Notes under the pieces: generated by a model
What the model was told of the DNA's origin: nothing
The model's input: the letters and a program-made list of their open reading frames with translations, nothing else
Database searches by the model: none
Part shown: piece after piece, positions 6,196-9,119 of the stretch
Numbering within the stretch: position 1 is the stretch's first letter
Layout of the letters: every line of letters starts with the position of its first letter
Source: a virus
Lineage: Duplodnaviria; Heunggongvirae; Uroviricota; Caudoviricetes
DNA: 10,559 nucleotides
Direction: 5' to 3' (one strand)
IMG/VR virus record: IMGVR_UViG_2526164631_000029
Made by a program: the position numbers and the translations under genes

Positions 6196-7509
6196 ATGAC
6201 AGTAAAAATTTCTGGCGTGCTTAAAGATGGCACAGGAAAACCAGTACAGAACTGCACCATTGTGCTGAAGGCCAGACGAACCAGCAGCACGGTGGTGGTG
6301 AACACGGTGGCCTCTGAAAATCCGGATGAAGCCGGACGTTACAGCATGGATGTTGAGCATGGTCAGTACAGCGTCACCCTGCTGGTTGAAGGTTTTCCGC
6401 CTTCACATGCCGGGACCATCACCGTGTATGAAGATTCCCGACCCGGTACGCTGAATGATTTTCTCGGTGCCATGACGGAGGATGATGCCCGTCCTGAGGC
6501 ACTGCGCCGTTTTGAACTGATGGTGGAAGAGGTGGTGCGTAACGCAGAGGAGGCGAAGAAGAATGCCGGAGAGGCGGAGACGTCAGCGAGGAATGCCGGC
6601 ATATCAGCCAGTCAGGCAGAAGAGAGCGCTGCAAATGCTGACACTTCAGCAGGGGAGGCATCGGAGTCAGCCCGGCAGGCGGCAGAAAGTGCAGCCTCAG
6701 CAAAGCAGTCAGAGGATGCGTCCTCGTCCTCGGCTTCTGCGGCCGCTCAAAAAGCCAGTGAGTCATCACAAAGTGCAGCAGATGCTGAATTGTCAAGAAA
6801 GACGGCAGAAAGTGCAGCCGGTAATGCAGCCAGGGATGCAACGACCGCAGCAGAAAAAGCCCGGGAGTCAGCAGAAAGCGCACAGTCAGCGGAACAAAGC
6901 AGGATAGCGGCGGAAGACGCCGTAAACCGAATCCCCACCGTGGTGGGACCTCCCGGGCCAAAGGGGGAACAGGGGCCCGCTGGCCCTCAGGGGCCGAAGG
7001 GGGATAAGGGAGAGCGTGGTGACACCGGCCCTGTCGGGGCAACCGGCGAACGGGGACCGGCAGGTGATGCTGGTCCGGCAGGACCACAGGGACCGAAAGG
7101 CGACAGGGGAGAGCGGGGAGAGACCGGTCTGACGGGAAATGCAGGTCCACAGGGTCCAAAGGGAGATACCGGTGCGGCAGGCCCGGCTGGCCCACAGGGA
7201 CCGAAAGGAGAAACAGGTGCGGCTGGCCCGGTGGGGGCAACCGGACCTCAGGGGCCGAAGGGCGACCCGGGGGAGACGCAAATACGGTTCCGTCTGGGGC
7301 CGGGAAACATTATTGAGACAAACAGCCATGGCTGGTTCCCGGATACAGATGGCGCACTCATCACCGGACTGACCTTTCTTGACCCCAAAGATACCACACG
7401 GGTTCAGGGTTTTTTTCGGCATTTGCAGGTCAGGTTTGGTGACGGGCCGTGGCAGGATGTTAAGGGGCTGGATGAAGTGGGCAGTGATACAGGCAGAACA
7501 GGAGAATGA
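6196..7509 (+). CDS. stf: Side tail fiber protein, mosaic: lambda Stf-like N-terminal domain, Ala/Ser/Glu-rich low-complexity segment, collagen-like Gly-X-Y repeat block, short C-terminal domain
   Basis: 437-aa ORF; N-terminus [81 protein letters not shown] matches the lambda Stf N-terminal domain as recalled. Shine-Dalgarno GGTGGA at 6186-6191. Contains 37 uninterrupted G-X-Y triplets. Stop TGA at 7507-7509 overlaps ATGs at 7506 and 7511. Confidence 0.88.
6946..7278 (+). repeat. Collagen-like Gly-X-Y triplet repeat block (37 consecutive triplets, 9-nt periodicity) inside the tail fiber CDS
   Basis: Translation [111 protein letters not shown] has Gly at every third position. Recurrent units such as GPQGPKG are visible in the DNA. 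Confidence 0.9.
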
Positions 7510-7518
7510 CATGAACAG

Positions 7519-7547
7519 TAAGCGGCTCGTCAGAACCGTATTGATAT
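7519..7547. repeat. Probable terminal inverted repeat of the IS66-family element (tnpC-proximal end)
   Basis: GTAAGCGGCTCGTCAGAACCGTATTGATA lies immediately beyond the tnpC stop (7548-7550) and starts with GTAA. The partner repeat is not in the window, so the exact length is unverified. Confidence 0.5.
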
Positions 7548-9119
7548 TTACTGAGAGCTCAGATCAACTTTCCAGGGCAACAGATCGCGTACCCGGTTTG
7601 CCGGCCAGTCCTGGATATGTTCAATGACGTAGCGCAGCCACTTTTCTGGCTCCACATTGTTCAGACGGCATGTGCCGATCAGCGAGTACAACACCGCCGC
7701 ATGTTCACCACCGCTGTCGGAACCCGCGAACATCCAGTTTTTCCGGCCTACGGCCACTCCCCGTAAGGCGTTCTCTGCGATGTTGTTGTCGATTTCCACC
7801 CAGCCATTACTGCAGTACACGTTCAGTGCATCCCACTGTTTCAGCAGGTATGCGAACGCTTTTGCCGTATCTGAGTGACGCGACAGTGTTTTCATCTGTT
7901 GCTGTATCCAGTCATACAGTGACTGCATCAGTGGCGCGGCTCTGGTTTTTCTTGCCGCCAGACGCTGTTCTGCTGAACAGCCCCGGACCTCTGCCTCGAT
8001 GGCATACAGTTCACCGATACGCTGCAGGGCTTCCGTGGTGATGTCGGTGGGCGCTCTTGCATGCACATCGTGGATTTTTCTCCGGGCATGAGCCATACAC
8101 GCGGCTTCCGTTATTCTGCCGGATTCGTATAACGCCCGGTAACCACCGTAAGCATCGGCCTGAAGCACACCGCTGTAACCGGCCAGGTGATTTTGTGGAT
8201 GGATACCTTTCCGGTCCGGACTGTACGCGAACCAGACCGCCGGGGGCATCTGTGAACCGGCGTTACGGTCATCACGGACGTAGACCCACAGCCGGGCTGT
8301 CCGGGTTTTACCGCTGCCCGGCTCCTGGACCGGGACGGGGATATCATCAGCATGGACTTTACCGGGCATCAGCACATACTGGCGCAGGACGTCATACTGC
8401 GGCTCCAGTAGTTCAGCAACGGCACCAGTCCAGCGCCCCAGTGTGGCACGGCTCAGCTCCACACCCTGACGGCGGTATATCTCTGACTGGCGGTATAACG
8501 GCAGATGGTCTGCATATTTTCCGGTGACGACATGGGCCAGGAGCCCCGCTCCGGCATAACTGCGTGCAATGGGTTTTGAAGGCACCGGTGCCTGCACGAT
8601 ATGGTCGCACCGGCAACAGGCCAGTTTCGGACGTTGTGTTTCGATAACCTTAAAGGCGCTGCTGATAAGCTCCAGTTGCTCTGACACATCACATCCCAGA
8701 GAACTGAGTTCACCACCACAGGCAGGACAGCATTCCTCTTCCGGCCGGATAACCCGGGTTTCACGGGGAAGTGAGGCCGGTAACGGTTTACGGGCTGAAG
8801 ACTGGCGCAGGGCGGATGGCAGTACCGGGTCATATTGCTCACCCAGCGTTTCCGCCATTTCTTCCTGAAGTGCGCTGATTCGCTCCTGTGCTTCCTGTAT
8901 CTGCCGTTCGGTTTTTGCACGAAGTTTTTCTGAGCTTTTACCGAACTGCATACGTTGCAGTTTCGCAACCAGCGCCTTCAGCCGGTTGATTTCGGAAGCA
9001 TAAGCCGCCACCCGCTGTGAGAGCAGGCGGTTGTATTCAGCCATCTGGCGTATGGTGTCCTGTTGCGTCTGCAACAGTGCCCGCAGGCGGGCGTTCTCAT
9101 GAGCAAGTGAGGTGTCCAT
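7548..9119 (-). CDS. tnpC: IS66-family transposase TnpC (DDE transposase with N-terminal coiled coil and zinc-finger-like Cys cluster)
   Basis: 523-aa ORF; N-terminal heptad-like region ([48 protein letters not shown]), Cys cluster CCPACGG...CCRCDH, and a long catalytic region typical of IS66 Orf3. Start ATG at 9117-9119 with GAGGA just upstream. Confidence 0.93.

Follow-up and report, generated by a model that had tools for sequence, protein, structure and literature searches.

Transposition of an IS66-family element into the stop/start junction between a collagen-like tail fibre gene and a small downstream gene of an Escherichia coli prophage

Introduction

EPclA of E. coli O157 Sakai follows a PfN-PCoil-Col-PfC domain scheme, with PfC at residues 363-426, and has been demonstrated biochemically to form a trimeric dumbbell in which PfC is the trimerisation knob (Ghosh et al. 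2012, PMC3368898). The small gene found downstream of the fibre gene described here is not discussed in that paper. In lambda, the side tail fibre gene stf is likewise followed directly at its 3' side by a small coupled gene, tfa, at the end of the late operon.

Elements of the IS679/ISCro1 group share a tnpA-tnpB-tnpC layout, GTAAGCG ends, an 8-bp target duplication and a length of ~2.7 kb, and their TnpC proteins carry zinc-finger and leucine-zipper IS66 domains. The ends of IS66-family elements begin with GTAAGCG or GTAACCG. Lambdoid prophages of EHEC that are disrupted by insertion sequences carry effector cargo together with several IS in their morphogenesis genes, and such damage is already well documented for EHEC prophage pools. 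In O157 Sakai, for example, an IS interrupts the nu1 gene of Sp4 (PMC2669165).

Here, a stretch of 10,559 nucleotides (the window) is analysed, which shares 99.99% identity with E. coli O111:H2 strain 12A (L002). An IS66-family element almost certainly transposed into the junction between the stop codon of an EPclA-type fibre gene and the start codon of a gene for an 89-aa protein, so that the latter is displaced and its coupling to the fibre gene lost. A literature search returned general context only, and no paper on the insertion, on ISCro1 target preference or on the small atfT/PF06820 gene.

The fibre gene and its small downstream partner

The EPclA-type collagen-like prophage tail fibre gene (6196..7509, + strand) is full-length and encodes 437 aa with PfN, coiled-coil, collagen and PfC domains. 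Its product matches PF08400 (residues 1-133), PF01391 and PF06820 (363-426), all three above their gathering scores, and belongs to phrog_366, tail fiber, in PHROGs; the domain layout is that of EPclA, with PfC at identical residues. Direct reading places the end of the ORF at ...GGA GAA TGA, the stop codon TGA being 7507-7509. The Shine-Dalgarno sequence of the 89-aa gene, AGGAG (7500..7504, + strand), lies within the last fibre codons, and GAATGACATGAAC spans 7504-7516. The ATG at 7506-7508 overlaps the fibre stop and opens a frame of only two codons (ATG ACA TGA), and the ATG at 7511-7513 begins one base past the stop and 6 nt past AGGAG.

The uninterrupted allele comes from strain 602687 (L003), whose orthologous prophage also sits at the serT-hya locus and has identical fibre and downstream proteins, the fibre being the same protein, WP_000216477.1. 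The original prediction had proposed that the ATGs at 7506 and 7511 overlap or abut the fibre stop and mark a coupled downstream gene, and had named the comparison with an empty-site allele in advance as its check. Both ATGs lie as described, and in strain 602687 the 89-aa gene starts at the ATG equivalent to 7511. The suggestion that the downstream gene might encode a tail fibre assembly chaperone did not hold, as its product is a stand-alone PF06820 protein with no Tfa-type family match in Pfam, PHROGs or NCBIfam, and in this it differs from the lambda stf-tfa pair.

PF06820 is the sole Pfam match of the 89-aa protein, and in PHROGs only phrog_576 and phrog_13758 ('tail fiber protein') were matched; no NCBIfam model matched, and a PDB sequence search gave no usable result. 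Because phrog_576 aligns over residues 1-89 of 89, this ATG is the conserved start of the family. The product consists of a 27-residue N-terminal segment and a PfC domain that is 35% identical to that of the fibre, and it is a stand-alone paralogue of the fibre's C-terminal PF06820 (PfC) domain. Two phage records call the gene atfT, and the depositor of KU977419 labelled it 'alternate tail fiber tip'. The uninterrupted pair occurs in ~697 of 5,426 genomes, with a median of 10 copies each, and also in 292 phage records, which include the Stx phage genomes BP-4795, AU5Stx1 and ArgO145.

The IS66-family element and the nested IS2

The IS66-family insertion sequence occupies 7518..10131 on the minus strand, which corresponds to the first 2,614 of its 2,699 bp, and carries the label ISCro1 family, an isoform name that is only PGAP's label. 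This stretch is 100% identical to the annotated IS66-family copies in FDAARGOS_1059 (L001) and strain 12A, and the IS679 copy of the same prophage matches the element at 94% identity. Between its duplications it measures 2,699 bp in FDAARGOS_1059, which fits the ~2.4-2.7 kb expected for the family, and 4,035 bp in strain 12A, where a nested IS2 (1,331 bp) and its 5-bp duplication are counted. The left inverted repeat, GTAAGCGGCTCGTCAGAACCGT, begins at 7518 and matches its counterpart, GTAACCGGCTCATTTAAACCGT, at 17 of 22 terminal positions.

The three-gene layout of the family is present, with tnpA and tnpB upstream of tnpC on the same (minus) strand. The DDE transposase gene tnpC (7548..9119) is intact and encodes 523 aa that match PF03050 (E=1e-102), zf-IS66, LZ_Tnp_IS66 and DDE_Tnp_IS66_C in Pfam, as well as NF033517 in NCBIfam with 477 bits, the cut-off being 180. 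The accessory gene tnpB (9139..9486; 115 aa; PF05717, NF033819) is also intact, while tnpA (9486..10131) is severed by IS2 from its first ~11 codons and from the promoter-proximal IS end; in FDAARGOS_1059 the intact tnpA has 678 bp, and its 225-aa product passes NF038385. The family assignment, which had been proposed from the sequence alone, is borne out by the identity to annotated elements and by the TnpA, TnpB and TnpC matches, and does not reflect a chance 7-mer. The element shows no structural difference from the IS679/ISCro1 group, with which it also has the zinc-finger and leucine-zipper TnpC domains in common, except that the copy in the window is inactivated in cis by the IS2 in tnpA.

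IS2, of the IS3 family, occupies 10132..10559 on the minus strand, and the window ends within it. The left copy of its 5-bp target duplication, GTTTC, lies at 10127..10131; the same pentamer flanks both IS2 ends in strain 12A and is single in the uninterrupted IS of FDAARGOS_1059, to which the identity of the window stops at 10131. PGAP annotates IS2, with a programmed frameshift, in strain 12A, and ORF 10143-10523 contains rve/rve_3 domains. Thus IS2 ends, an rve-type integrase core, a 5-bp duplication and a length of 1,331 bp were all found.

The insertion boundary and the structural account

An 8-bp target site duplication, CATGAACA, precedes the element at 7510..7517, and the first two codons of the 89-aa gene, with the ATG at 7511-7513, fall inside it. 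The same 8 bp follow directly 3' of the far IS end, both in strain 12A (12754-12761) and in FDAARGOS_1059, and occur once in the empty site of strain 602687. Both boundaries can be read without ambiguity: on the left, the base after CATGAACA is T in the empty site and the G of the IS end in the window; on the right, the base before it is the C of ...GGTTAC at the far end and A in the empty site. Removal of the IS and one copy of CATGAACA restores the empty site of strain 602687 base for base. The original prediction was right that an 8-bp duplication precedes the IS end, but its letters and position are CATGAACA at 7510-7517 and not ATGAACAG at 7511-7518, and the element begins at 7518, 8 nt after the last base of the fibre stop, instead of at 7519 and 10 bp past it; examination of the far end, which it had proposed, yielded the matching copy.

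Since this direct repeat is present at the far end, the event is a simple transposition. It might be argued instead that the element marks an IS-mediated deletion, an inversion or a recombination between IS copies, with loss of the original downstream DNA. Such events are plausible a priori in a prophage full of IS elements, and strain 12A has apparently lost a 5' fragment of the tail gene K beside IS679 that FDAARGOS_1059 keeps. The identical 8 bp at both IS ends and the exact reconstitution of the 602687 site on removal of the IS stand against a rearrangement, which is already refuted by the duplication and the 100% identical empty-site allele and must be considered very improbable. It could also be supposed that the IS cut a longer fibre gene, of which the 437-aa ORF would be merely the N-terminal portion, as PGAP names the two neighbours 'tail fiber N-terminal domain-containing' and 'tail fiber C-terminal domain-containing'. 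In the uninterrupted allele, however, the 437-aa protein is the same and ends at the same stop codon, the fibre already carries its own C-terminal PfC at residues 363-426, as does the characterised EPclA with the same architecture (PMC3368898), and the 89-aa gene lies in a different reading frame with its own Shine-Dalgarno sequence and ATG. A truncated fibre therefore has next to no probability; the proposal is likewise already refuted, and the fibre gene is complete, its ORF being untouched by the insertion.

In this transposition, a 2,699-bp IS66-family element (ISCro1/IS679 group), with its tnp genes on the minus strand, entered the late operon where it ends, at the stop/start junction, and doubled CATGAACA, in which the 89-aa gene has its start codon. 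The left product retains AGGAG and, from the native gene, the ATG and two codons, which run on into IS sequence as a 38-codon ORF devoid of meaning, and the right product comprises the whole 89-aa ORF and the intrinsic terminator of the operon, with the IS end in place of the ribosome-binding site. In a later step, IS2 inserted into tnpA, duplicating GTTTC. Nothing contradicts this structural account; the functional consequence is a prediction.

The 38-codon hybrid ORF (MNSKRLVRTV...VQ*, 7511..7627, + strand), in which the 2-codon remnant agrees with the few native codons expected to be left before the IS, is the 3' part of a listed ORF at 7379-7627. This longer ORF crosses the 3' end of the fibre gene out of frame, enters the inverted repeat of the IS and has no protein family or Pfam match; it is an artefact, as the original prediction had held when calling it a read-through. 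For annotation, ORF 7379-7627 should be discarded, the fibre gene kept as complete, and the small distal gene recorded as displaced, not deleted.

Predicted consequences for the displaced gene and the prophage

The complete 89-aa ORF sits 4,043 bp downstream, outside the window, and survives intact because the duplication contains its ATG and so regenerates ATGAACA. It is left without the AGGAG ribosome-binding site and without stop/start coupling, being preceded now by the IS end and followed directly by the intrinsic terminator of the operon. The duplex with the 3' end of 16S rRNA amounts to -7.4 kcal/mol for the native Shine-Dalgarno sequence and to -4.0 kcal/mol upstream of the displaced gene. 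A promoter scan of the 640 bp surrounding the displaced gene detected no sigma-70-like site on either strand and thus gave no sign that the IS drives its expression. The gene would thus be translationally, and probably also transcriptionally, silenced or strongly reduced. Q-antiterminated late transcription could pass through the 4 kb of IS, and re-initiation is conceivable, as a 5-codon mini-ORF from the IS end (ATG AGC CGG TTA CCA TGA) has a stop codon that overlaps the displaced start codon as ATGA.

The prophage is lambdoid and carries type III effector cargo (a TccP2/EspF-like gene and an EspV fragment), and it has further lesions, with IS679 in the tail gene K, within the window, and ISEc22 in the large terminase gene. 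It is defective regardless of the IS66 insertion and, because these two lesions are already present, the latter would have no further consequence for phage production. Of the proposal that the distal fibre module is disrupted and the prophage defective, the second part therefore stands, mainly on account of IS679 and ISEc22, while the 89-aa ORF is displaced intact. In comparison with EHEC prophages such as Sp4, the host here is O111:H2, the elements are IS66-family members and IS2, and the IS66 insertion in the window keeps both flanking ORFs intact. The event is an ordinary one, which adds a further IS lesion to a prophage of an O111:H2 gut E. coli that carries effectors and is already defective.

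Recurrent insertions at the end of the fibre operon

Closely related copies of the IS66 element (99% identical) have hit the same junction independently elsewhere, and the target GAATGACA, 6 bp upstream of the event in the window, was used in both orientations, in ~73 and ~129 genomes, sometimes in two prophages of one genome. Three further insertion events lie inside the 270-bp gene of the 89-aa protein, and a second double-hit site consists of a pair 1 bp apart in opposite orientations, just before the ATG of the next gene. This IS, in either orientation, was found in no genome within ~550 bp after the neighbouring lom gene. The exact junction of the window occurs in 2 of 5,426 genomes. An apparent bias towards one orientation proved to be an artefact of query design, the opposite-orientation query matching even more genomes.

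The target choice of the IS66 family is, to our knowledge, essentially uncharacterised. The ISCro1/IS679-type element probably prefers the junction, and in a wider sense the final ~650 bp of EPclA-fibre late operons, as its target, a reading that is favoured with some reserve. A possible, less likely explanation is that the position is accidental, the element landing nearly at random and its copies surviving since they are harmless in a target present in ~10 copies per EHEC/EPEC genome. In line with it, the same IS has diverse surroundings in Escherichia sp. MOD1-EC7003, where its 53 flanks give only a weak consensus of ~1.5 bits on which the site of the window scores below average, and the exact junction is rare; an accident of position accounts poorly for the identical GAATGACA target in both orientations, for the additional events in the 270-bp gene and before the next ATG, and for the lack of copies after lom. 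It is improbable that the insertions were selected for a benefit which the lysogen draws from an inactive 89-aa gene or an inactive end of the fibre operon: many independent IS insertions do split the gene or take away its Shine-Dalgarno sequence, yet selection for loss of function would not favour an identical nucleotide position in both orientations, and the gene is intact in ~6,500 copies. If the preference is true, the operon end would offer a defined natural hot spot for the study of IS66-family target selection, and the recurrent, orientation-independent use of the junction by one such element is the sole wider point of this locus.

As an explanation of the hot spot, a weight matrix built from the 53 flanks was too weak, with site B at the training median and site A below it. 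A resemblance to the IS ends was likewise set aside, as CAGAAC, common to the left inverted repeat and the 3' end of the fibre gene, is not enriched in the 53 other flanks. The IS copies of two interrupted loci (L004 and L005) differ from each other at 2 of 2,699 bases, and their flanks have diverged by 2.5-5%, which fits repeated insertion, recombinational spread or IS homogenisation alike. Both double-hit sites directly follow a Shine-Dalgarno-like GGA|G.

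Insertion at the fibre stop/start junction

The collagen-like tail fibre of this prophage is a 437-aa protein (ORF 6196-7509) that carries PF08400 (PfN), collagen repeats and PF06820 (PfC, residues 363-426; 7282-7473) according to Pfam. This is the domain architecture of EPclA, the collagen-like prophage fibre of E. coli O157, in which the C-terminal PfC functions as a trimerisation domain and forms a trimeric distal knob (PMC3368898). The fibre stop TGA (7507-7509) lies within GAATGACATGAAC (7504-7516) and is overlapped by an ATG (7506-7508) whose frame reads only ATG ACA TGA, while a second ATG (7511-7513) is located one base past the stop and 6 nt 3' of an AGGAG (7500-7504). 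The IS66-family terminus GTAAGCG follows the fibre stop as originally predicted, although it starts at 7518, one base before the position proposed; in the same way, an 8-bp target duplication does adjoin the IS end, but it is CATGAACA at 7510-7517, its coordinates having been off by one. The left junction reads GGAGAATGA, CATGAACA and GTAAGCGG in succession, and the far IS end reads GAGCCGGTTAC, CATGAACA and TACTAAAAAAACTT both in E. coli O111:H2 strain 12A (99.99% identical to the window) and in E. coli FDAARGOS_1059 (99.94% identical up to 10131). The presence of the same 8 bp at both ends, a match that had been sought as a check, means that the event was a simple transposition. The fibre ORF is unaffected by it. 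A T6 versus T7 run at 6175, in the lom-fibre intergenic region 20 nt 5' of the fibre start codon, is the sole difference between the window and strain 12A, and may reflect either genuine variation or a sequencing artefact.

When the two flanks are fused with only a single copy of the repeat between them, the resulting uninterrupted sequence has a 100% identical match in strain 602687, in an orthologous prophage at the same serT-hyaA locus, where an identical fibre protein (WP_000216477.1) is followed directly by an 89-aa gene (WP_001023419.1) starting at the ATG equivalent to 7511. Among 5,426 complete E. coli genomes, 697 contain the uninterrupted pair (median, 10 copies each); it is also present in 292 phage records, including the Stx phage genomes BP-4795, AU5Stx1/AU6Stx1 and ArgO145.

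The inserted element (7518-10131, minus strand) encodes, all on the minus strand, tnpC (7548-9119; PF03050, E=1e-102; NF033517, 477 bits), tnpB (9139-9486; PF05717, NF033819) and, after tnpB, a 5'-truncated tnpA. In all the defining features tested it conforms to the IS66 family; PGAP labels its transposase 'ISCro1 family', and it shares 94% identity with another copy in this prophage that is labelled IS679. Its termini form an imperfect inverted repeat, with 17 of 22 positions the same. In FDAARGOS_1059 it is uninterrupted and 2,699 bp long. In the window, an IS2 of 1,331 bp (from 10132 to the window end at 10559, which falls inside it; 11333-12663 in the strain 12A locus L002), flanked by the 5-bp duplication GTTTC (from 10127), is nested in tnpA and parts tnpA'BC from the promoter-proximal IS end. 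Since FDAARGOS_1059 is devoid of this IS2, its insertion is the younger event.

The displaced downstream gene

The gene at this coupled position had been proposed to encode a tail fibre assembly chaperone or cargo; it does start at the predicted ATG, but its product is a paralogue of PfC. Along its whole length (1-89 of 89) the 89-aa protein aligns with phrog_576, and its residues 28-89 match PF06820; its identity to the PfC domain of the fibre itself is 35% (E=2e-11). Ahead of its PF06820 domain it bears a cysteine-containing N-terminus of 27 residues (MNILKKLMQRLCGCGKHDD...). Pfam detects no Tfa-type chaperone signature in it, and neither an NCBIfam model nor, by structure search, a solved relative was found. 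The depositors of the AU5Stx1/AU6Stx1 records named this small gene atfT, 'alternate tail fiber tip', and no paper treating a stand-alone PfC small gene was found in the literature. A strong intrinsic terminator lies directly 3' of it, so that the late operon ends with this gene.

It had also been proposed that only two or three native codons of this gene remain. The insertion does uncouple it from the fibre gene and displace it, but the ORF is not destroyed: as the duplication holds ATGAACA, its right-hand copy restores the complete 89-aa ORF beyond the IS and outside the window (L002 12755-13024), where PGAP lists it as intact. This ORF is now 4,043 bp from its AGGAG, separated by the 2,699 bp of the IS66-family element, the 1,331 bp of IS2 and the 5-bp IS2 duplication. 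Pairing of the 16S 3' end with the 20 nt now upstream yields -4.0 kcal/mol, versus -7.4 natively, and no sigma-70-like promoter is detected upstream of the displaced ORF. Judging from these sequence features, translation of the 89-aa gene is expected to be lost or strongly reduced. Q-modified transcription of the late operon might continue across the insertion, and an outward-reading ATG 13 nt from the tip of the IS right end opens a 5-codon mini-ORF (L002 12740-12757) whose stop TGA overlaps the displaced start codon as ATGA, an arrangement that could permit some re-initiation there. In the window, the native Shine-Dalgarno sequence and ATG now head a 38-codon junk ORF (MNSKRLVRTV...VQ and stop), which is the 3' part of the listed ORF 7379-7627. 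That listed ORF, correctly regarded as a read-through artefact, overlaps the 3' end of the fibre gene out of frame, enters the IS end from ATG 7511 onwards, and matches no Pfam family.

State of the prophage

The prophage is defective, as had been suspected, but mainly through other IS insertions. The end of a second IS66-family element (1-268; IS679 family according to PGAP), with the target duplication GGATTATT (269-276), interrupts tail gene K, which encodes a C40/NlpC-P60 peptidase and is intact in strain 602687; the gene K fragment extends to 881, and in FDAARGOS_1059 the first ~45 codons lie on the other side of the IS679-type element. In the same prophage of strain 12A, ISEc22 splits the large terminase gene (L007 12592-17177), and a second IS2 occupies a TccP2/EspF-like effector gene (L002 13257-15662), giving five IS copies in one ~45-kb prophage. 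The prophage is therefore defective irrespective of the insertion at the fibre junction. Multiple IS lesions are a well-documented pattern in EHEC prophage pools (PMC2669165).

Recurrent insertions at the junction

Apart from four corrections, the original interpretation is borne out. The element has entered, in textbook fashion and with an 8-bp duplication, a prophage arrangement that is already annotated and public, and little here is new. Of wider interest is only that one IS66-family element has targeted this junction repeatedly and irrespective of orientation. The exact junction of the window occurs in only 2 of the 5,426 genomes. About 73 genomes (O26:H11, O103, O111:H11, O39 and others) carry a 99% identical IS in the same orientation 6 bp upstream, with the duplication GAATGACA between the fibre stop and the ATG, and a separate purpose-built query for the opposite orientation retrieved ~129 genomes with the IS inverted at the identical target. 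Both orientations are represented among the loci L004 (9605-9612 and 12312-12319), L005 (same coordinates) and L010 (4536-4543 and 7240-7247), and were confirmed in two different prophages of strain 2013C-3277. An IS cannot be inverted with respect to both its flanks by homologous recombination, so the insertions at this one nucleotide position are independent.

Three further independent events fall within the 270-bp gene, at +125, +148 and +202 relative to its ATG. Another lies ~280 bp 3' of the gene's stop codon, and in yet another ISEc22 has entered the terminator that follows the gene. About 115 bp after the 89-aa gene, a pair of opposite-orientation insertions 1 bp apart, with the duplications GTTTTGTT and TTTTGTTA, directly precedes the ATG of the nleG-like gene that comes next (DUF1076; ~4418-4425 and 7125-7132 in locus L006, ~3619-3626 in locus L064). 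Both double-hit sites come after an SD-like GGA|G. In L006, PGAP places the DUF1076 CDS start within the IS end, at an ATG 13 nt in, which shares the reading frame of the native start.

As a control, none of the genomes carries the IS, whichever its orientation, in the ~550 bp that follow the stop codon of the adjacent lom gene; this target is ~2.7-fold rarer among the matches. For the same IS, 53 flanking sequences (49 from Escherichia sp. MOD1-EC7003) yield a consensus with only a weak preference that is roughly palindromic (G..TT/AA..S, ~1.5 bits), against which GAATGACA scores at the median and CATGAACA of the window below it. The junction is thus likely to be a real hot spot for this element, for which the weak target matrix provides no explanation. 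The draft of MOD1-EC7003 (L011-L063) contains ~50 contig ends with the same IS left end, and the coverage of its IS contig is ~50-fold that of ordinary contigs, so that the element has massively expanded in this one strain.
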